64,000 nt of DNA. Source: Desulfatiglandales bacterium. GTDB taxonomy: Bacteria; Desulfobacterota; DSM-4660; Desulfatiglandales; Desulfatiglandaceae. This document shows positions 1 through 64,000 of this stretch, one piece after another. The stretch lies in NCBI GenBank assembly GCA_963662465.1, contig OY759599.1, positions 6,688,001 through 6,752,000 of the forward strand, read 5' to 3'. Made by a program: the position numbers and the translations under genes. Below the pieces are notes generated by a model, which did no database searches, was not told the origin of the DNA, and saw only the letters and a program-made list of their open reading frames with translations. Within the stretch, counting starts at the first letter, position 1, and each line of letters begins with the position of its first letter.

Positions 1-2838
1 CACCATCGCGATACGCTCTCCGTGTTCTTGAAGAAGGTCCCATGCCTCTTGGCCATCCGCCGCTGCAAGGACCTTGTACCCCGCTGCTTCCATGAACCCC
101 TTGACCTGATCCCTGAAGAAATTAGAGTCTTCGGCCATCAGAATTTGAGTGGCGGACTCATCGGTGTTATCCGCATGGTTTTTGTCGGCAAACCAGTGAG
201 GGTTGAGGGTCTGAATGATATCAAAGATGTCCACCAGCAGAGTGGTCCGGCCGTTAATGATGATTGAACCCATGATGCCGGGTTGTTTCAGCGCCATTTC
301 ATCCGTTTTGCCGATGACCTCAACGGCGTCTACGGGTCCCGTGGCCAGAAGCCCGATTTCTCTGCCTGCCAGCAGGAAAACGAGGACCAGCAGATGTTTT
401 TTTTCGGCCAGGGGGTTAACCTTCGCCACCTGGTCGATGGTAAAGAGCAGAAGGTTGCCGCCCCGGTATTGTACGACTCTTTTGCCGCCCACCTCTTCCA
501 TATCCGTGGCGGCAATTTTTTCGATTCTGATACAATGGTTCAGTGGAACGGCAAACTGTTCATCGCAGGCGTTAAAGAAAACCAGGAGAGATTGTTTGTT
601 TTGTCCGGTTCTTAGCGTTGCTTCCGCCTTCCGTTCCAGCTCCGCGGCCCGCGTCATTTCATGTACGGAAGAAAGCTCCGCCAGTTGGGCCAGTTCCATG
701 ACATCCAGAATCAATGCCACCCTGCCGTCGCCCATGATGGTGGCCCCGGCATACCCTTTGGTCTGCTTGAGATGTCGGCCCAGGGGATGTACCACGATTT
801 CTTCCGAATCAAAGAGCGCGTCCACCACCAGGCCGTATTTCATGCTTCCGGAGGAGACGACGACGATGTTGATCCCGCTGGCCACCCGATAGCGGCGGTC
901 ATCGCAAGACCGTAGTGGGTGGGTTTCGAAGGAGCTGTCTTCGATTTGGGTTTCACGAGCGCCACGGGAACCGAAAAGGGGAATCTTTTTCGATCGTCGA
1001 TCCGCAATCCGCTTGCGACGGTCCTTTTGGTTTTGACGGGTGTGAGGGTCCGTATAGGTTCTCCGAATTCCCAGTAAATCGGCAAGTCTGACCAGCGGTA
1101 ACAGGCTGGAACGCAGCCGGACCACTTCCGCATCGCCGATCAGTTCGATCCGTTTTTTGGCCTGATCGGCCGGAATGCGGATCAGTTCTTCCAGATTGAC
1201 CTGGGGGACCGCATAACGGTTGCCCCCGGTCAGAATAATCTGGCTGGGGATAATGGCCAGGGTCAGGGGAACCTTGATCCTTACGGTGGTTCCTTTTCCC
1301 GGCGAGGCGTCAATCTCGATTTGTCCCCCCAACCGGTCCAGGTTGGTTTTGACCACATCCATGCCCACTCCCCGGCCGGATAGATCCGTTACGGCCCGGG
1401 CCATGGAAAATGCCGGCAAAAAGATCAGGTCTATTTTTTCATTGTCTTTCAACTCCCGGGCCTGATCTTCCGTGATGAACCCTTTTTCAATGGCTGCCGC
1501 GGCCACCAGGTCGCCGTCGAGACCCCGTCCATCGTCGGAAATTTCAATGTTTACCCGGCCTGCTTCATGAAATGCCTTAAGGCTGATCCTGCCTATGGGG
1601 TGTTTTCCCGCCTTTTCCCTTTCCAGGGGTGTTTCAATGCCGTGATCGATGGCATTTCTCACCAGATGCGTGAGTGGGTCGCCGATGGTTTCAATGAGGG
1701 TTTTATCCAGTTCTACATCCTTTCCGTCAATGTGCAATGCCACTTCTTTGTCCAGGCTTTGGGCTAGATCCCGCGCCAGCCGGGGAAATTTATTAAAAAC
1801 ACTTCCAATGGGCTGCATTCGGGTGCGCATGATCGCTTCCTGAAGTTCGGAGGTAATATGATCGATCCTTTTGGCCACCATTTCCGAGGTGTGATGATCT
1901 TTTCCGGCCAGGGCTTGAAGCAGTTGGTTGCGGCCGAGGACCAGTTCGCCCGCAAGGGCCATGAGCGAATCCAGGAGACTGACATGAACCCTCAGGCTGG
2001 TGTCGGAAGCCTCCTTATCCTTATGGTGTTCTTCAGGCACGGGTTCCACGGGGGAAGCCTTTTCCGGTTTGGGTGAGGTTGTCCGTCTCTCCTCATCCGT
2101 CTCATGCACATGGTCCGGGTTTATATCAAAGAGCGTTGCAATGTCTTCTGGATCCAGTACGCAGGCGAAAACAAGTGTCAGGGTTTGAAGGTCGTGGTTT
2201 TTATGAAGCTGGTGAGCCAGCACATTCCCGTAACCATCGGCTTCCTTCAGAATGTCTTCGGGAAAACGAGCGCCCTTTCCGGAATTTCGCGCCATTGGAA
2301 TTTCGATGCGGTAAACGGATTTCCCTTCTGCTTTCATTTCCGCCAATTGGCCAGGATCAATGGACAAATCAGTCGGGGTGGTGGTCAAGGCATCTGGAAG
2401 AGATGCGCCGGTCTGGGGTTTTGAAAGTTCAGGGGGCCTGGGCATGGATTCCGGTGGATGGGTCAGGGAAGAGAGTGCGCGAATGGGATCGGAAATGTCC
2501 ATTTGATCGCTGGTTTCCACATGGATTAAGAGATTTTTCAGGATATCGGATGCCAGCAGGAGAAAATTGATGTTTTCCGGGTTGGGCACGAGTTTTCCAT
2601 TTCGCATGAGTCCCAGAACGTTTTCCATGTGGTGCGAAAGGGTTTTGATGTTCTCGAGGCCCATAAATCCTGCCCCGCCCTTGATGGAATGGGCCGCACG
2701 AAATACCTTATTGACTTGTTCCACGTCAATATCTGAACCGGCCTTTTCCATTTCCAGAAAATCCGTTTCGATGCCCGTCAGATGTTCCAGTGATTCATCA
2801 ATATAGGCTTTCAGGGTTTCCTCATCGCCGGTATTCAT
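1..2838 (-). CDS. cheA: CheA chemotaxis histidine kinase, hybrid with CheW domains and C-terminal receiver; 3' end outside the window
   Basis: Absent from the ORF track because it runs off the window. Manual translation from ATG 2838 gives MNTGDEETLKAYIDESLEHL, Hpt FRAAHSIKGG, LRVHVSLLDSLMALAGELV, PLTHLVRNAIDHGIE, SGRGVGMDVV, IKVPLTLAI, CheW repeats and receiver ILMAEDSNFFR. Confidence 0.93.
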   Translation of the reverse strand, partial: MNTGDEETLKAYIDESLEHLTGIETDFLEMEKAGSDIDVEQVNKVFRAAHSIKGGAGFMGLENIKTLSHHMENVLGLMRNGKLVPNPENINFLLLASDILKNLLIHVETSDQMDISDPIRALSSLTHPPESMPRPPELSKPQTGASLPDALTTTPTDLSIDPGQLAEMKAEGKSVYRIEIPMARNSGKGARFPEDILKEADGYGNVLAHQLHKNHDLQTLTLVFACVLDPEDIATLFDINPDHVHETDEERRTTSPKPEKASPVEPVPEEHHKDKEASDTSLRVHVSLLDSLMALAGELVLGRNQLLQALAGKDHHTSEMVAKRIDHITSELQEAIMRTRMQPIGSVFNKFPRLARDLAQSLDKEVALHIDGKDVELDKTLIETIGDPLTHLVRNAIDHGIETPLEREKAGKHPIGRISLKAFHEAGRVNIEISDDGRGLDGDLVAAAAIEKGFITEDQARELKDNEKIDLIFLPAFSMARAVTDLSGRGVGMDVVKTNLDRLGGQIEIDASPGKGTTVRIKVPLTLAIIPSQIILTGGNRYAVPQVNLEELIRIPADQAKKRIELIGDAEVVRLRSSLLPLVRLADLLGIRRTYTDPHTRQNQKDRRKRIADRRSKKIPLFGSRGARETQIEDSSFETHPLRSCDDRRYRVASGINIVVVSSGSMKYGLVVDALFDSEEIVVHPLGRHLKQTKGYAGATIMGDGRVALILDVMELAQLAELSSVHEMTRAAELERKAEATLRTGQNKQSLLVFFNACDEQFAVPLNHCIRIEKIAATDMEEVGGKRVVQYRGGNLLLFTIDQVAKVNPLAEKKHLLVLVFLLAGREIGLLATGPVDAVEVIGKTDEMALKQPGIMGSIIINGRTTLLVDIFDIIQTLNPHWFADKNHADNTDESATQILMAEDSNFFRDQVKGFMEAAGYKVLAAADGQEAWDLLQEHGERIAMV

Positions 2839-3025
2839 TATTGTATTCCCCAAGAACGGACATTTTTTTAAAAGTAACATTAAAAATGTCACGTTTCAAG
2901 AATAGTTTTAACTGGTTTGCCGAAGAACCCTATCCAGTTGTAAAGATCTTGACAGAAATGGCATGGTTGGCTATTGAATTGGATAAAGAGGGTCATGTCA
3001 ACCATCAATCCCAAGGGAGCTTATC

Positions 3026-3430
3026 ATGAAAGAGATCAATGAGCTGGATCTGCCGGAAGACCTGCGCTACACGGACGATCATGAGTGGGCAAAACTGGAG
3101 GGCGATGCGGCAACCATCGGTGTCACCGACTTCGCACAGGAACAGCTCGGCGATATCGTGTTTGTGGAGCCCCCTCAACCGGGGGATAAATTTAAACAGG
3201 GGGATGAGTTCGGCACGGTGGAGTCGGTCAAGGCCGTAGCGGAGTTGTATATGCCGGTTGCGGGAGAGGTTATCGAGGTGAACCATGCCCTTGAAGATGC
3301 CCCCGAATTGCTGAATAAGCGCCCTTATACCGACGGATGGATCATTCGAATTAAACCCGATGATGTTTCCAGTCTGGACGGCCTTATGGACAAAGGGGCT
3401 TATCTGAAGATGCTGGAGGGATCTGAATAG
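3026..3430 (+). CDS. gcvH: Glycine cleavage system H protein
   Basis: YTDDHEW, GVTDFAQEQLGDIVFVE, lipoyl-Lys motif VESVKA. Confidence 0.97.
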   Translation: MKEINELDLPEDLRYTDDHEWAKLEGDAATIGVTDFAQEQLGDIVFVEPPQPGDKFKQGDEFGTVESVKAVAELYMPVAGEVIEVNHALEDAPELLNKRPYTDGWIIRIKPDDVSSLDGLMDKGAYLKMLEGSE

Positions 3431-46271: not shown

Positions 46272-46663
46272 AGTTGATCCAATGGATGACTTAGGTGCGC
46301 CCTCTACGCCGGTGGTACAACAGTTCCGTGCAGGCAGTTGACAGACCTGCAACCTGACCATATCCGCTGACACTGGGCAGCGGCATAAGACCTATTAATC
46401 TTCGTAGGTCCTTCGCTTGTGATCGACGCTTAAAGACATTCAGATACCTTCACCATATCATCCGACCCTGGCCCTTAACCGGGGAGGATTCCCGGAGGGG
46501 TTTTCCTGTCACCATTCAAACCCAATTCGGTACGTTGTCCGCAGGGCTTCACACCCCGTCATCAGCGCAACGGCAGCATGCCTGCGTAGGGTCCGGTAGG
46601 AACATACCGGGTACTACATGTAACTACATGAATACACTCAAACTATGCGACTTCGTGTCGCAA
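46272..46663 (-). mobile_element. 5' fragment of a group II intron (same element as the one at the window end)
   Basis: Begins TTGCGACACG right after attC GTTATA; 46272-46333 is identical to 63939-64000. Confidence 0.8.
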
Positions 46664-55230: not shown

Positions 55231-57353
55231 CTCACGGTAGGAACGCCGGTCACCCAGCGCCCCCCGCACAGTCCCGGACGTGCGGTTTTCCCGCATCCGG
55301 TTCCTCGGTTGTACTCGCTTTCGCGCAAAGCATCAGCATTAGCAAAACACCTTTCGTGGCCGGGGTGCCGTCGGTAGCTTCGGTTTGGCGATCCCCAGGC
55401 GATTTATGGCCCGGTTGAAAGCCTTCCAGGTGAAACTTCTCCGCTTACCCCCTCTTCGGTTCAGCCACTTAAACGCACAATCACTCGCCCATCGGTAAAA
55501 ACGCCATAACGAATTGGCGTTCCCCACCACGCTGTAATAGTTGTAATGTCCGCGCAGTTTGCGGTTGAGCGTCTTTATGAACGCAATCCCCTTCAAATGT
55601 CGGTTTTCCTTCACCCATTCCTTGATGCGCCTGCAGGCACCCTGCAGCTTTTTACGGCCGGTGCGCTGCATGACTCTCACCTTTCCCTGTTTGTCATAGG
55701 TCCAGTAGGTCTCAAAACCCAAAAAGACAATCCGCCTGCGCATGCTCGGATCAAAACGACTGAATCGCATCATGGCGGTTTTATCAGGCGCTACACTGAG
55801 GCCAAACTTCAAAAGCCTTTCGGGCAGCACGTGGAAAAACCCTTTTGCCTCTTTTTTGTACTGAAAAGCACAGACAAAATCATCTGCGTACCGAATGATC
55901 ATGGCGGCCCCTTTACAGTGGGGCTTCACCACCTTTTCAAACCATAAGTCAAGGGCAAAATGCAGGTAGACATTGGCCAAAACCGGCGATACAATCCCCC
56001 CTTGGGGAGTACCGCTGTCCGGATGGATAATTTTGCCATCCGTATCCAGAATGCCGGCTTTAAGCCATTTTTGGATCAGATTTAAAAACGGCGCATCATC
56101 AACTCTTTCCATGAGCATTCGCATCAGCCAATCATGGTCCATATGGTCGAAAAAGCCTTTGATATCGGCCTCGACGACATATCCATATGATCCAAACTGA
56201 AGTTCAAAACGCAAATCATTGACAGCGTCTTTTGCGCTTCGGTTGGGCCTGTAACCATAGCTGACATTCAGAAAGTCAGCTTCGAATATGGCTGTCAGGA
56301 GTTTGGCACATGCCAATTGCACCAACCGGTCTTCAAGGGCCGGAATGCCCAAGGGGCGTTGTTTGCCGTTTTCTTTGGGGATGTAACTTCTGCGTACCAG
56401 TTTGGCACGGTAACGTCTGGTTTTCAATCGCTCCGCCAATGACGCGATATTGGCCTCAAGATTTCCTTCGTAGGCCTCGGCCGTCACTTTGTCCACACCA
56501 CTGGCTGCATCCTTATTCAGGTCTTTCCAGCAGGCACGGAGAAACGGCGCGTTCAGACACCGGTAAAGGTCTTGAAAGCGGTGTTTTCCATCAACTTTTG
56601 CCTTAATGGCTATTCCCTGCAGTGAGGTTGGCTCGTATTGTTCCAGCCCTACATTGTCCGGTGCGAGTTTCCTTTGCAGACTGCGTACTTCCGTCAGGTC
56701 CTTCCCCATGTGGTGGGCTTTCCCCACCGCTGAGTAGTATGCCTGATAAGACACCCCATTGGCGTATAGAGGGCCATCGGAGGTCCGATTTTCCTCCCAC
56801 CCGGTTGTTCCTTTCAGCATTTCGGCTGTGTAGTGAACCACTGTTACTTTACCTCACCGTCAGTGTGAAATAAACTCCCTGGAGCCTTTGGGGCTTCCCG
56901 AGTTCTACGGCGCATCTCTTCCTGCATGCCACGGCCTGAGGACTCCGGCGGACCTCCACATCCTCGCCATAAACGGATGCTTCCGTGTTGCCTTCGGTGA
57001 ACGTTCAAACCCTCGGCGTCCGCAATTGCTATTTCGAAGCTGTACCAGCACTTCAGGGTGCGCGATCACCCCTGCGGCCTACAGGATACTCTGCCTACGC
57101 TTAACCCATCTTGTTCGCTGCTTCCACCGTTAGGTGGGGTGAGTCCATCCGCCTATTTGCTCATCCCTGAGCGCGGCTCGTTTCCAACCAGCATATGAAT
57201 GCCGATGTCCTACACCTGACAGACTGAACAACTCCGCCATGGGTCCAAGGCTCGATACGGGTGGGTGGCTAACCCTTACAGAAAGCCATTACTGATTTTC
57301 CTCCCGACAGGGACTTTCACCCTGCAAGATACGCCGAGCTTTCCTCGGCGCGA
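55231..57353 (-). mobile_element. Complete group II intron with RT/maturase, inserted after GTTC of attC4
   Basis: 5' TCGCGCCGAGGAAAGCTCGGCG..GGTGAAAGTCCC; DV GAACCGGATGCGGGAAAACCGCACGTCCGG; DVI ending CCTACCGTGAG; boundaries good to about 1-2 nt. Confidence 0.88.
55339..56841 (-). CDS. ltrA: Group II intron reverse transcriptase/maturase without endonuclease domain; true start uncertain, probably near 56630
   Basis: RPLGIP, ADIKGFFD, PQGGIVSPVLAN, RYADDF, LRGHYNYY. Confidence 0.93.
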   Translation of the reverse strand: MVHYTAEMLKGTTGWEENRTSDGPLYANGVSYQAYYSAVGKAHHMGKDLTEVRSLQRKLAPDNVGLEQYEPTSLQGIAIKAKVDGKHRFQDLYRCLNAPFLRACWKDLNKDAASGVDKVTAEAYEGNLEANIASLAERLKTRRYRAKLVRRSYIPKENGKQRPLGIPALEDRLVQLACAKLLTAIFEADFLNVSYGYRPNRSAKDAVNDLRFELQFGSYGYVVEADIKGFFDHMDHDWLMRMLMERVDDAPFLNLIQKWLKAGILDTDGKIIHPDSGTPQGGIVSPVLANVYLHFALDLWFEKVVKPHCKGAAMIIRYADDFVCAFQYKKEAKGFFHVLPERLLKFGLSVAPDKTAMMRFSRFDPSMRRRIVFLGFETYWTYDKQGKVRVMQRTGRKKLQGACRRIKEWVKENRHLKGIAFIKTLNRKLRGHYNYYSVVGNANSLWRFYRWASDCAFKWLNRRGGKRRSFTWKAFNRAINRLGIAKPKLPTAPRPRKVFC

Positions 57354-57742: not shown

Positions 57743-58918
57743 CTATGCTGCTTGGGCGTGTATCATGTCCTGGACTTTATTGAACCTCGGAAGCTCTCTT
57801 AACTTTTTGACCGGCGTCAATATTTCCAGAGTTATGAGGCGTTTCCCGCAAACAGGGCAACAATCCGGTCGCTCGTCGCTTCGCTGTTGCCAGAGACTCT
57901 GCCAATCCAGGAATCCCAGACTTTCAAGAGGCGGTTGACCCAGTATTTCCCGGCAGAGTGCCAGTTCTTCTTTTGAGCTGTGATGATAGAGTTCGTATGA
58001 ACGCACCATCACGGTATTTGCTAGGGGGACGTGTTGCAGATAGCGGCTGATAAAGGTTTGAATCGGCAGGGAGATGAGTTTTACCTTCTCACGACCGTAA
58101 TTGAAGGTCACGTTCCCGTTTTCAATGCTGTAGATGCGTTTGTTTGAAATTGCTCCGCCTCTCAAGTAACGCGCCAGGTAAATCAACACGCCTTCACCGT
58201 ATGAATAGGTCTCTTTGAGCTTGACGTTCCATTTTTTGCGGCGGCCCAGTTTATTGAAGAGGTTCCGGGCCTGCTGAGGCCCCATACCCTCGGGCAGAAC
58301 CAGTTCGTTCCGATCCAGGGCTTTTCTCAAATAGTAGAGGTACTTGCCTCGAAATACCGCCCGGACGATGCCAAAGGGCAAAAGGAATTTTTTTGATGAA
58401 GCGATCCACTCGCCGGCGATCAGCCCACCGGCCGTTACCAGACAATGCAGATGCGGATGAAAGTCCAGTTTTCGGCTCCAGGTATGCAGTGAGGCGATGA
58501 TGCCGACTTTGCCCCCCAAATGCTTCGGATCTCCAAGGAGTTCGGAAAGGGTTTCAGTGGCGCTTTTGAACAGCAGATTGCCCATAAGCTTGCGGTTCAA
58601 CCGCCATAAGTCGTGCAATTCATCGGAGATGGTGAAAATAACATGGAAATGTTCGGTGTTTAAGATGCGAGCCTTTTGTTTTGCCAGCCAACGTTCCACC
58701 TGGGTAAAAGCGCAGAGGGGGCACATGCGATGTTTACACGAGTTGTACCAGTGCCTTTTGAAGTGACCGTCCGGGCACGCCTGCACGTGACCCCCCAGAG
58801 CAGATGTGCGGCAACTCATCAGACGGTGTGCCGCTTCACGAATATGTTCCGGAAGAAGATGGGTCTGATCATAGAGGGCATAGCCTATAAGAAAGATGCT
58901 CTGAATCGTCGCTTCCAC
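57743..58918 (-). CDS. IS91-family (HUH, Y2) transposase carried as a cassette
   Basis: CRTSALGGH..YNSCKHRMCPLC, HFHVIFT, HTW..HPHLHC, YLARY; AAGGAGG RBS before GTG. Confidence 0.92.
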   Translation of the reverse strand: MEATIQSIFLIGYALYDQTHLLPEHIREAAHRLMSCRTSALGGHVQACPDGHFKRHWYNSCKHRMCPLCAFTQVERWLAKQKARILNTEHFHVIFTISDELHDLWRLNRKLMGNLLFKSATETLSELLGDPKHLGGKVGIIASLHTWSRKLDFHPHLHCLVTAGGLIAGEWIASSKKFLLPFGIVRAVFRGKYLYYLRKALDRNELVLPEGMGPQQARNLFNKLGRRKKWNVKLKETYSYGEGVLIYLARYLRGGAISNKRIYSIENGNVTFNYGREKVKLISLPIQTFISRYLQHVPLANTVMVRSYELYHHSSKEELALCREILGQPPLESLGFLDWQSLWQQRSDERPDCCPVCGKRLITLEILTPVKKLRELPRFNKVQDMIHAQAA

Positions 58919-60338: not shown

Positions 60339-60386
60339 GCCGGGTAGCCGGGGGATGTTGCCATCCCCGAGCCCCCTCAGAACCAC
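60339..60386 (-). mobile_element. 3' end (end of DV plus DVI) of the group II intron split by the recombinase element
   Basis: Minus strand GTGGTTCTGAGGGGGCTCGGGGATGGCAACATCCCCCGGCTACCCGGC. Confidence 0.85.
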
Positions 60387-60775
60387 TATATAATGCCCAT
60401 CAAAACCAGTTTATAACTTGGGTATATTACCCATTTCACCCAAGAACCGGTGAAGAAATTTATGTGGTAGGTACCAGAAACCATCGTGGAGAAACTTGTT
60501 TTGTAACAAAGAAACCTGATGGTCGCCATGAATTGATACCTGCGTGGATGACCAATCCAAAGTATGAAAAGATATCCCTCGGCTCAAAACCCGCTATCGA
60601 AATCAGGGCGCTTAAGAATTTATATTGCTTAATAGTGAATAGAAAAATACCGTTTCCTCCTGATGAAGTCAATTCGAAAACAAGGAGGAAAGATGACGAA
60701 ACAAAAATATCATCAACTTCGGCTTTGGGATTATTTACCATCACCGATCGAAATTCCAATAGAAACACGAAATAG
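60387..60775 (+). CDS. Headless accessory ORF of the LSR element (resembles Y4bD/DUF5372-type proteins)
   Basis: YNAH..YPFHP.TG....IPAWMT motif; the natural RBS+ATG appear to lie at 63516-63531; family assignment is from memory of the motif. Confidence 0.7.
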
Positions 60776-60854
60776 ATTGATTGATTTCCTTGCAGAGCTT
60801 CTGTCAGGTTTCTGGCAAAATTCTGAGGGTAACAGAAATAGAAAAGAGAAGTAG
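60693..60854 (+). CDS. Small accessory ORF (MTKQKYHQLRLW...LAELL)
   Basis: AAGGAGG RBS; lies upstream of the LSR. Confidence 0.6.
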   Translation: MTKQKYHQLRLWDYLPSPIEIPIETRNRLIDFLAELLSGFWQNSEGNRNRKEK

Positions 60855-61053
60855 TTTCACTAACGTAAAATCGCGGTCTGATATTGGAAGCAGTCAAGAG
60901 ACTGGAGTTGTTGAAGCAAGCAGCTTAATCCGACTCAGAAAAATCGTAACTATAAATCATAAATAGCTTATTTTCCGATAGAAATAGGTGTTTAATTGAA
61001 AAACGTACGCGGTATTCAAAAATATTGGACGAATTTGAAGGTGAAAAGGAGCG

Positions 61054-61260
61054 ATGAAAATGAGAGGTGGGAGTCGAAAAGGCGCTGGTCGAAAAAGGAG
61101 TCCTGAACATCTGAGGCGTATCCCCGTCACGATTCGGTTACGGAAGTGGATGGTTTCACAGATCAAAATGAAAGGCGAGATAGGGTATTTGATTGAACTC
61201 GAATTAGCGACGAAAAAGGGTTTTCTCGACTTACCAGATGATTATCTGGTCGGAAGCTGA
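61054..61260 (+). CDS. Small basic putative DNA-binding protein
   Basis: AAGGAG RBS; GGSRKGAGRK motif then VTIRL. Confidence 0.6.
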   Translation: MKMRGGSRKGAGRKRSPEHLRRIPVTIRLRKWMVSQIKMKGEIGYLIELELATKKGFLDLPDDYLVGS

Positions 61261-61428
61261 CTAAGGTGCGGTTATGGTCGCTCTTTTAATGGATATTTCG
61301 GCAGGAGCCACCGGAGCCTTCTATGACCTCGTCGCAGCTTACAATTACTCATATGGGGGTCAAAATTCGGTTGTCGCAAGAGGTCAATTTTCGGTTGACA
61401 TTTCGAGAAAAGAAAGGTGGAAATGAGC

Positions 61429-63510
61429 ATGAGCAATAAAATCAATGCTGAACATATTAGTCGGGAAGCATGTATATATATCCGTCAGTCAACACCGGGC
61501 CAAGTTCTACAGCATCGTGAAAGCCAACTTTTACAATATGGCTTGGTAGAAAGGGCAAAAGAATTAGGATGGAACGAGAAAAACATATGGATGATAGATA
61601 GTGATTTGGGAATAACTGCATCGGGATGCGTTGACAGAAAAGGATTCCAGAATCTTCTTTCATCTGTGTGTGAAGGAAGAATAGGGGGTATTTTCTCGAT
61701 TGAATCATCGAGGTTGGCCCGCAACGGTCGAGAGTGGCATACGTTGCTTGAGATCTGTGCACTTAAAAAAACGGTTCTTGTAGATCAAGGAGCTGTTTAT
61801 GACCTAAACGTGTCAAATGATCGTTTGCTCCTGGGCTTAAAGGGAGAAATGAGTGCAATGGAATTGAGCCTATTAAAGGAGCGTTCTCAGGCGGCAATAC
61901 AACAAAAAGCGAAGCGGGGAGAATTATATCTTACTGTACCGGCAGCCTATATAAAGACTAGGGATAATAAGCTGAAAAAGAATCCTGACAAACGAATTCA
62001 AGAAGTCATTGATTTGGTATTCACGAAATTCAAGGAATATGGTACTCTTCGTCGGGTGTATCATTGGTTTTTAGATGAACAGATTGAGATTGCTGTTGTT
62101 TCCAGCGGTAAAGGGGAACGTAGGATAGAGTGGAAACTACCGTCTGCTCATACCTTGTCGCATATAGTGAACAACCCAATTTACGCCGGCGCCTACGTCT
62201 ATGGCCGGACTAAAACAGAGGTAACTTTTGAAAATGGGCGCAAGCGACTGAGGAAGGGTATTCGTAAGGAACAAAAGGATTGGGACGTTTTAATATTGGA
62301 TCACCATGAAGGTTACATCACATGGGAAGAGTACCAGTATAACATGGAGATACTAACTCAAAATACAAATAAGAAAAGGCCGGTGGTGAGAGGAGCTGTT
62401 CGCGGAGGAAAGGCATTGCTTGGAGGTTTGTTAAGATGCGGTCATTGCGGTAGAAAGTTAATTGTACGATACCAAGGCCGTAATGGAACTCATAAACGTT
62501 ATGAGTGTAGCCGCAAACGAGGTAACGAGACAGGAAAGGCGTGTATATCATTTGGTGGATTCCGTGTTGACCGGGCTGTTACGGATTTTCTTTTGAAAGT
62601 ATTATCACCGATAGGATTAGAAGCTTCTTTAGAGGCGATAAAGAAAATCAACCATGAATCGGATTCAGTGAAACGGCAACGGGAACTGGAGTTGGAACAA
62701 GCGCGTTATGAAGCTTTACGGGCAAAACGTCAATACAATGCAGTAGACCCTGATAATCGTTTGGTAGCATCTACATTGGAGAAGGATTGGAATGACGCTC
62801 TTGTTAAGGTAGCAAGATTGGAGAATGAGGTTGACGCCATGGGATCGAACACCCCTTCGCTTTCCCCTGAGGAGGAGACTGAGATCAGAGATCTATCAAA
62901 AGATTTACCTCGTGTATGGAATGATCCGTTTTGCTCTTTGGATTTAAAGAAGCGTATAATCCGGACGGTTATCAAAGAGATCGTTGTTTATTTGGAAGAT
63001 CAAAAGATCAAATTAATCATTCACTGGGAAGGGGGTGAGCATACGGAATTGGAGGTATTGAAGAATAAGTCTTCCAGTTACCCATTGAAAACCGATGTTG
63101 ATACAAAAAAGATAATATCCGATTTGGCTAGAATTATGCCTGATAAACACATCGTGGCCTTTCTCAACCGTGTGGGTACAAAGACTACAAAGGGATATAC
63201 CTGGAATCCGGTAAGGTTGCGTTCATTTCGAAATAGGCATAATATCCCTGTATATCATGAAGGAGAGAGGCAGCGACGAGAAGAATATACGGTAGCTGAA
63301 GCAAGCGAAAGGCTGGGTATTGGCAGCACCAAAGTTTGGAGACTTATACAACATGAGATTCTACCCGCCAAGCGAGTATGTTCCGGTGCTCCATGGATCA
63401 TTTCAAAAAAGGACCTTGAATCTGAAGTGATAAAAAAGGCAGCTCATTCCGGGCTTCCAAAGAGCCCGCTTTCAAGAAACTCAAAACAACAAGTCTTTAA
63501 TTTTCAATAA
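61429..63510 (+). CDS. Large serine recombinase with Zn-ribbon, coiled coil and C-terminal HTH
   Basis: YIRQST catalytic Ser, ESSRLARN, NPIYAG, LRCGHCG..YEC, YTVAEASERLGI. Confidence 0.95.
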   Translation: MSNKINAEHISREACIYIRQSTPGQVLQHRESQLLQYGLVERAKELGWNEKNIWMIDSDLGITASGCVDRKGFQNLLSSVCEGRIGGIFSIESSRLARNGREWHTLLEICALKKTVLVDQGAVYDLNVSNDRLLLGLKGEMSAMELSLLKERSQAAIQQKAKRGELYLTVPAAYIKTRDNKLKKNPDKRIQEVIDLVFTKFKEYGTLRRVYHWFLDEQIEIAVVSSGKGERRIEWKLPSAHTLSHIVNNPIYAGAYVYGRTKTEVTFENGRKRLRKGIRKEQKDWDVLILDHHEGYITWEEYQYNMEILTQNTNKKRPVVRGAVRGGKALLGGLLRCGHCGRKLIVRYQGRNGTHKRYECSRKRGNETGKACISFGGFRVDRAVTDFLLKVLSPIGLEASLEAIKKINHESDSVKRQRELELEQARYEALRAKRQYNAVDPDNRLVASTLEKDWNDALVKVARLENEVDAMGSNTPSLSPEEETEIRDLSKDLPRVWNDPFCSLDLKKRIIRTVIKEIVVYLEDQKIKLIIHWEGGEHTELEVLKNKSSSYPLKTDVDTKKIISDLARIMPDKHIVAFLNRVGTKTTKGYTWNPVRLRSFRNRHNIPVYHEGERQRREEYTVAEASERLGIGSTKVWRLIQHEILPAKRVCSGAPWIISKKDLESEVIKKAAHSGLPKSPLSRNSKQQVFNFQ

Positions 63511-63540
63511 CGTACGGAGGTGTGTATTATGCCGCTATTA

Positions 63541-64000
63541 CCCTCAGAACCACGCATGAGACTTTCACCTCACGTGGCTCAAGCCCCCGAAAAGGTTTCC
63601 CTGGTGGGGATTCCCGCAGATTTGCATCCACTTCACGTTACAGGCCGGCTGTCAGAATAGCCAAAGGCGCACGGGGCGCACCAGCCTCAAGGGCCGTCAT
63701 TCGCCCGTTTCACTGGCTGCTTTCCCCGCTTTCATCTGATTCCTCCGGTGTTCACGTGATCGGGCACCGCGCTGAACGTCTGCCTCCTTACGGAGCCGGG
63801 AATGTTTCACCCGGTATCCGGGCCATTACAGCCCGGCATTCGCTTCTTTCAGCCTCCTATTCCGGCCCGCCAACAGCATGCCTTGCGGTTAGCCTGCCCC
63901 CAAAAGGGGCGACGGGACCGGGTTTCCACGTTCCGCATAGTTGATCCAATGGATGACTTAGGTGCGCCCTCTACGCCGGTGGTACAACAGTTCCGTGCAG
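63541..64000 (-). mobile_element. ORF-less group II intron (DV and upstream domains; 5' end beyond the window)
   Basis: DV GAGCCACGTGAGGTGAAAGTCTCATGCGTGGTTC; only a 12-aa mini-ORF with RBS (63735-63697) about 115 nt before DV. Confidence 0.82.

Follow-up and report, generated by a model that had tools for sequence, protein, structure and literature searches.

A minimal large serine recombinase element that probably targets the domain V/domain VI junction of group II introns

In a stretch of 64,000 nucleotides from a Desulfatiglandales bacterium (GenBank assembly GCA_963662465.1, contig OY759599.1, positions 6,688,001 to 6,752,000 of the forward strand; hereafter the window, to whose numbering positions refer unless a genome position or another locus is named), the catalytic core of a group II intron is split by an insert that encodes a large serine recombinase (LSR). 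Did this recombinase select the DNA of a ribozyme core as its landing site, or did it come to lie there by another route? A reading of the window made without database searches (the sequence-only reading) had favored the former, proposing that the LSR uses the most conserved part of a mobile ribozyme as its bacterial attachment site, attB. Comparison of the element's other copies and of the flanks of its homologues points the same way. It is highly likely that a minimal LSR element uses the double-stranded DNA at the junction of intron domains V (DV) and VI (DVI) as attB, and that the gene for a possible cofactor is divided in the process.

The element proper comprises 3154 bp (60387-63540, plus strand) and is 99-100% identical among seven genome copies. 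It is flanked by the exact 13-nt repeat CCCTCAGAACCAC at 60374-60386 (left shared core, attL) and 63541-63553 (right shared core, attR), with an offset of 3167 bp, just as the sequence-only reading had described. A lone pair of 13-mers within 4.2 kb is only slightly improbable (approximately 0.1 expected by our own estimate), and the weight of the argument therefore rests on the other copies of the element. When the 3167 bp were removed by script, the remaining 77 nt of the minus strand folded into the two hairpins of DV and DVI, including a bulged A (-40.6 kcal/mol), and by eye matched the string rebuilt earlier. A natural equivalent is found in the same genome at positions 3334730-3334806, where DV directly adjoins DVI in an uninterrupted copy of this intron (57.2 bits). 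To the right of the insert, DV is intact (63547-63580, minus strand), all 34 positions of the Rfam model RF04357 being aligned with posterior 1.0. The longer model Intron_gpII (RF00029) matches 63512-63582 of the minus strand with 45.8 bits (gathering score 40), and the DVI half of this alignment is occupied by element sequence. To the left, the minus strand of 60339-60377, which forms the 3' end of the intron and the B arm of the attachment site, folds as a DVI hairpin with the bulged branch-point A at 60345 (the complement of t60345). The last intron base is 60339, since all seven genome copies are alike up to g60339 and differ beyond it. The earlier statement that DV stays contiguous on the right and is severed from DVI and the 3' splice site is thus borne out. 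An insertion "into domain V", as it was also put, is correct with respect to the intron as the target and needs amendment with respect to the exact place, which is the linker between DV and DVI together with the first base pairs of DVI. The 13-nt repeat is an identity between the left arm of the element and the 3' strand of DV, and no target duplication. In mechanistic terms, the right half-site would be the 3' strand of DV and the left half-site the G-rich 5' strand of DVI, with the left arm of the element imitating the DV half-site and so producing the apparent repeat.

The body of the target intron (domains I-IV; 63581-64000, minus strand) continues for approximately 326 nt beyond the window end to the intron 5' end, and just past the window end a D1-D4-7 match (RF02012, 79.3 bits) is located at 2098-2238 of locus L011, minus strand. 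Without the insert the intron measures approximately 821 nt, with 786 nt between its 5' end and the core. Because no open reading frame (ORF) of at least 80 amino acids (aa) was found on the intron strand between D1-D4 and DV, and hence no intron-encoded reverse transcriptase, the target appears by its sequence to be an ORF-less ribozyme copy dependent on protein supplied in trans. At locus L013 (1094-1170 and 1223-1995), an empty copy of this intron starts directly behind the 3' end of a further intron, the two forming tandem introns. In five of seven aligned copies the intron 5' end lies 3 nt past the GTT of attC-like repeats, whose 20-mer occurs three times in the window versus none expected. 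The genome encodes five integron integrases scoring above the curated cut-off, one of them approximately 41 kb to the right of the window and another 2 kb from the element copy c4984. An intron within a cassette array is thus a reasonable reading of this nesting, and the description of the element as a hyperparasite in an intron in a cassette array finds support. By placing 3.1 kb between DV and the DVI hairpin with the 3' splice site, the insertion would disable the intron copy. It would do so without cost to the host, because the target introns sit in integron attC sites.

The LSR gene (61417-63510, plus strand) encodes 695-697 aa; ATG 61423 is favored as its start because the homologues begin with MSM(I/S)NKI. 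The protein shows a resolvase domain (PF00239, residues 19-169, 68.7 bits against a cut-off of 23.3), a recombinase domain (PF07508, 49.7 bits), a zinc ribbon (PF13408, 34.4 bits), and a C-terminal helix-turn-helix (HTH) domain of the HTH_17/excisionase-like type (residues 624-668, PF12728, 30.9 bits). It also matches the PHROG 95 integrase family with 188.7 bits. In an alignment of 18 homologues, the catalytic-serine motif (Y21, R23, Q24, S25, T26) and the four cysteines of the zinc ribbon (C341, C344, C364, C376) are invariant. A coiled coil within the zinc domain is presumed from a gap of approximately 100 residues past the zinc ribbon. Judged by these domains, which include all Pfam domains of the family, the recombinase is an LSR. 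Comparison with PDB sequences by phmmer gave no match at E ≤1e-5, and against a phage collection only matches of 23-25% identity were obtained, no record having one place that covered at least 80% of the query.

Seven copies of the element (six full and one interrupted) occur on a single contig of 8.16 Mb and differ pairwise at 6-36 positions per 3154. Six of them are inserted at the same bases, between a DVI to the left and a DV to the right, and each is followed by a different 3' exon. The genome contains uninterrupted copies of the same and of related introns. The 20-nt perfect site is matched six times in the genome, each time at an attL junction, so that every perfect site is filled and none is free. 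The closest unoccupied sites carry AA as their dinucleotide or have two other bases in the DVI arm, and two intron families of 13 and 10 copies, which have the same AG center and one to three changes beside it, were never occupied. That such near-perfect sites stay unused indicates that the specificity spans both arms.

Outside this genome, LSRs of 69-84% identity were found on four contigs of metagenome-assembled genomes and at 35 of 39 metagenome loci, with conserved element ends. The sequence-only reading had named the flanks of close homologues as the place to look for DV and DVI, and both are found there. A DV-type Rfam match starts at the element end in 17 of the 24 right flanks of at least 50 nt, eight of these matches exceeding the gathering score despite the loss of DVI. 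On the left, 18 of 21 distinct flanks show a DVI-like hairpin that begins 1-2 nt from the center (11 called automatically by a single bulged A and seven by eye). The introns targeted by the homologues belong to three Rfam D1-D4 types (2, 6, and 7). Together with the six genomic junctions, these flanks argue for the ribozyme core as attB. A search across the order matched the LSR at E ≤1e-50 in 16 of 209 genomes; of the matches outside the element's own genome, no more than two short fragments attained 79-83% identity, and no clean additional junction was obtained.

That the recombinase is a loosely specific enzyme of the Tn4451 type, which needs only a short core and occurs in introns owing to their abundance in this genome, is improbable, although several observations would agree with it. 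Between four and seven of the 24 right flanks and three of the 21 left flanks are not DV or DVI, respectively, and the genome copy c6823 adjoins an IS91-family gene. Moreover, full-length relatives of 47-50% identity, present in 402 of 528 matching plasmid records and often several times per plasmid (rhizobial plasmids), occur at other targets: the flanks of the relatives inspected at L097 and L098 (rhizobial plasmids), L036, and L087 are not DV, and one relative lies between an IS66 tnpB and an IS66 transposase gene. Among LSRs of 36-41% identity (L035, L036, L038), intron D1-D4 matches are found nearby, and the sequence past the LSR stop of L036 is not DV. A short core alone, however, would not explain why the 13- and 10-copy families with the same center are left untouched, or why copies with two changes in the DVI arm stay empty while every perfect site is filled.

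Very unlikely is a spread from one intron copy to the next through homologous recombination or gene conversion, in which the recombinase would play no part. The intron offers approximately 790 nt of homology on one side of the element, and the genome holds 52 DV/DVI matches from several intron families as potential partners. On the DVI side, however, the homology is limited to 35-47 nt, and the copy c4984 contradicts an exchange through intron sequence. Five of the six junction copies belong to one intron family, while c4984 is in another, and its flank diverges past the 11th base of the core, the family changing 2 nt beyond the shared core. The exchange must thus have taken place within those 11 bases. 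The identical junction position in unrelated introns of other organisms, and an LSR gene that is open in six of seven genome copies and in all 18 aligned homologues, also speak against recombination driven by the intron.

It is still harder to maintain that the element is a passenger, which entered an intron once through an LSR without any preference for DV/DVI and was then spread by retrohoming of the intron. The five copies in one intron family would fit this scenario, as would two of the ten pairs among them, in which intron and element diverged to a similar degree. In the remaining eight pairs, divergence is significantly higher for the intron than for the element, and the two patterns are discordant, the intron and element trees being incongruent. 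In most pairs, intron divergence exceeds element divergence 2-17-fold; between c5887 and c3315, for example, the divergence is 2.54% for the intron and 0.19% for the element, and in another pair of the same family 3.44% and 0.22%. The contrast extends to unrelated intron bodies, as the element of c4984 differs from that of the window at nine of 3154 positions and its intron body at 264 of 720 aligned positions. This decoupling indicates that the element moved separately from the intron and entered pre-existing introns one by one. Empty intron copies, the same position of the homologues in three intron types, and the fact that an insert of 3.1 kb parts the catalytic hairpin from the branch site are further arguments against transport by the intron. 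A domesticated switch, whose excision would rebuild a working DV-DVI and thereby turn on a host gene or cassette in the manner of XisF, the excision recombinase of the fdxN element, is barely credible: XisF is the best NCBIfam model for the LSR (113.5 bits, residues 73-419) and falls far below its cut-off of 375, so that the LSR is not a member, and the seven copies lie in ORF-less introns at unrelated places without a common host gene, one broken by an insertion sequence (IS) and one rearranged.

Use of the DV/DVI junction as attB has to be weighed against several observations that do not fit it well. The copy c6823 (genome positions 6823249-6826402) has DVI, here of a third intron family, on its left only. 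On its right lies the gene of a C-terminally truncated IS91-family (Y2) transposase, no dinucleotide being shared between the two sides; comparison with intact IS91 copies at the break did not reveal a shared dinucleotide either. This copy looks like the product of a secondary rearrangement. Among the homologues, seven of the 24 right flanks lack an Rfam DV match. Two of these are DV-like by eye, one contains half a DV, and the other four are something other than DV; three of the latter four represent one sequence, with an intron D1-D4 match 220 nt away. Several of the metagenome contigs may join flanks that belong to different copies. The divergence contrast is not significant in two of the ten intron pairs, and gene conversion among the element copies could have inflated it in the others. 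Finally, the activity of the LSR on a DV/DVI site is predicted from sequence. Assembled reads in Logan, from four public runs, contain joints that skip the 3167 bp, with only 21-38 nt on the shorter side, and empty introns could yield the same joints. No circle joint is listed among these contigs, which drop rare forms.

Where within the shared core are the strands exchanged? The site is bounded by the direct repeat, the limit set by c4984, and the covariation of a dinucleotide, and a 2-bp exchange in the linker would most likely involve CT at 60376-60377 in attL and 63543-63544 in attR. When attL and attR were aligned by their fixed distance to the conserved element ends, 20 distinct junction pairs were obtained. 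In 15 of these the dinucleotide is the same on both sides and covaries between CT, CA, and, in one case, CG, whereas approximately 9.5 concordant pairs would be expected from the base frequencies according to our own arithmetic. We lean towards CT as the crossover dinucleotide, and some of the data do not favor it. The five remaining pairs are discordant, always T versus A, which may be due to contigs mixing the flanks of different copies, to recombination between copies, or to tolerated mismatches. The dinucleotides one base to its left (positions 11-12) and two bases to its right (14-15) agree in 15 of 20 pairs as well, but do not covary. Symmetry of the sites adds little. The sequence-only reading had described inverted arms in attP, the element's own attachment site, 24 bp apart and centered on CT. 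Two 10-nt arms are indeed located there on the reconstructed circle, 24 nt apart around C63543/T63544, and this placement stands; their symmetry does not, since only seven of ten positions match, no better than in shuffled sequences. The rebuilt attP scores 12 of 24 symmetric positions at CT, compared to a mean best of 10.9 (sd 1.2) for shuffles, and the symmetry of attP and attB was not above shuffles. One metagenome locus, L067, has 3' halves of DV facing the element on both flanks (417-455, plus strand, and 3024-3093, minus strand), and its central dinucleotide is the palindromic CG. A palindromic center would abolish the orientation cue for a serine recombinase.

The two ends of the element raise a second question, because they appear to share a gene. 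GGAGG and an ATG are found 5 and 18 nt past the LSR stop (63516-63531, plus strand), and this arrangement is conserved at all right ends found. The body of ORF1 (60389-60775, plus strand) lies at the opposite end, where its frame continues through the core and the first in-frame start within the element is reached only at codon 29-52. On the excised circle, the ATG past the LSR stop reads through the core into ORF1. The frame across this junction is open for at least 100 aa in all 26 usable loci, and its first residues are conserved; the 27th locus, L026, lacks a right end and was left out. Integration would thus split ORF1 into a ribosome-binding site with ATG at the right end and a body at the left end, and only the excised circle, by way of the LSR transcript, would yield the complete protein. 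While the element is integrated, a frame of 140 aa (63522-63944, plus strand) begins at the ORF1 start; it runs antisense through the intron, has no family match, and is probably meaningless.

ORF1 is well conserved (68% mean column identity in an alignment of 19 sequences). It resembles the Pfam family DUF5372 below the cut-off (E=5e-4), and a literature search on this family found no papers. The structural model consists of a small, SH3-like barrel and a helix, with pLDDT >90 for residues 11-60, followed by a disordered tail. When residues 1-85 of ORF1 were modeled together with the LSR, the predicted complex scored 0.64, and the best of three controls 0.00. Among solved complexes, 116 of 157 attain this mark, as do two of 215 mismatched pairs; these counts are only rough for the present case, which relied on our own alignments. 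The runs agreed in at least 79% of the contacts, and the pLDDT of the partner was at least 74. The predicted contacts on the LSR (337-347, 395-411, 482-500, and 510-544) map to the zinc ribbon and to the presumed coiled coil at either end, and the models thus predict that ORF1 binds at the zinc ribbon and the coiled-coil base. We infer that ORF1 biases the circle towards integration or otherwise sets the direction of the reaction. Two points count against such a role: a Foldseek search of the ORF1 model against the PDB gave no hit at E ≤0.001, the best (0.07) being generic SH3/Tudor domains, and a cofactor restricted to the circle does not fit the classical part of a recombination directionality factor (RDF) in excision. 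It remains a tentative idea that the reaction toggles its own directionality factor, which exists only on the circle and promotes or locks integration, in an LSR lineage specialized on mobile DNA. If true, the logic of this factor would be the reverse of that of a classical RDF, and no regulator would be needed. The start design, in which a ribosome-binding site and ATG come immediately behind the LSR stop, is kept in relatives of only 36-50% identity (seen at L097, L098, L036, and L087) that land in other mobile DNA, IS66 being one example.

Besides ORF1 and the LSR, the element carries two small genes, and all four are encoded on the plus strand. ORF2 (60663-60854, 63 aa) overlaps the part of ORF1 that codes for the disordered tail and has no family match, but a homologue is present at the start of locus L028. 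ORF3 (61054-61260, 68 aa) has a basic N-terminus and no family match above threshold, its only match being a weak one in PHROG (E=7e-4). Both are intact in all seven genome copies. A search for mobilization and cargo genes among the three small ORFs gave no Pfam, NCBIfam, or PHROG match to any. In a whole-genome search, a 139-nt piece of ORF3 (approximately 61058-61196) was 71% identical to approximately 28 other places in the genome, whereas blastn at E 1e-5 matched only the seven element copies. Two 16-nt direct repeats, 24 nt apart, are located directly upstream of the LSR start at 61358-61397 and may represent an operator. In the copy c3315, the LSR gene is interrupted by a 2850-bp IS-like element (genome positions 3315896-3318745) flanked by an 8-bp target duplication. 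The inserted element has imperfect terminal inverted repeats and ORFs of 620 and 230 aa without Pfam match, and one further full copy and some pieces of it occur elsewhere in the genome. The window also contains a second group II intron with a reverse transcriptase/maturase ORF (55231-57146, minus strand), an intact IS91-family transposase gene (57743-58918, minus strand), and another piece of a D1-D4-7 intron (46471-46611, minus strand).

How does this element relate to known systems? It resembles the clostridial elements Tn4451/Tn4453 (TnpX) and Tn5397 (TndX) in being small and in having an LSR as its sole recombination enzyme. In the Tn4451/Tn5397 type, circularization upon excision generates new expression signals that span the joint. 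There it is a promoter that is split, whereas in the present element it is a coding sequence. Tn4451 and Tn5397 furthermore carry mobilization and resistance genes, and the present element is devoid of cargo. Excerpts of one source describe exchange between att sequences that are identical over 2 bp, integration and excision without an RDF, and the use of numerous sites with a GA dinucleotide for this type (PMC5704250); the present element, by comparison, is specific for a site of approximately 20-40 bp in a ribozyme gene, with CT, CA, or CG at its center. The architecture of catalytic, recombinase, and zinc-ribbon/coiled-coil domains is shared with phage integrases such as those of phiC31 (Int/gp3) and SPbeta (integrase/RDF). 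Here too, the predictions place a small partner at the zinc domain and the coiled-coil base. Partial text of the respective sources reports that the phiC31 RDF gp3 binds in the zinc-domain/coiled-coil region of the integrase (PMC5814800) and that an RDF repositions an integrase subdomain (PMC11722253). The present system differs from phage integrase/RDF pairs in that there is no phage and only 3.15 kb of DNA, that the LSR has an additional C-terminus of 150 residues with an excisionase-like HTH, and that the gene of the candidate cofactor is broken by integration. Its full form can therefore not be a classical excision-only factor. Unlike the XisF system, the element has no single developmental target. 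The closest parallel in target choice may be integrative and mobilizable elements (IMEs) with serine recombinases, which, according to the same excerpts, integrate at internal sites of traG in Tn5252-related integrative and conjugative elements (PMC5704250). In both cases a conserved part of one mobile element is the attachment site of another. The IMEs, however, target protein-coding genes, whereas the present element targets DNA that encodes the catalytic RNA core of a retroelement and is multicopy within a single genome. A literature search found no report of DV/DVI of a group II intron as the target of a serine recombinase or integrase; passages of PMC4853749 and PMC9203015 deal with different subjects. 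The element is set apart from known systems by this target, its minimal gene set, and the split cofactor gene.

The nesting of mobile DNA in this genome thereby gains a level, from the integron array to the intron in attC, the LSR element in the intron core, and the IS in one of the LSR genes. The most conserved DNA of a retroelement can act as a landing site that is portable, multicopy, and harmless. Conversely, the element should disable the introns it enters and hence may limit their spread. The element and its homologues also provide a naturally occurring series of related serine integrases, whose attP/attB pairs can be read and vary in half-sites and center. This series, and a candidate cofactor that would be switched by the reaction itself, could be useful for the engineering of integrases.

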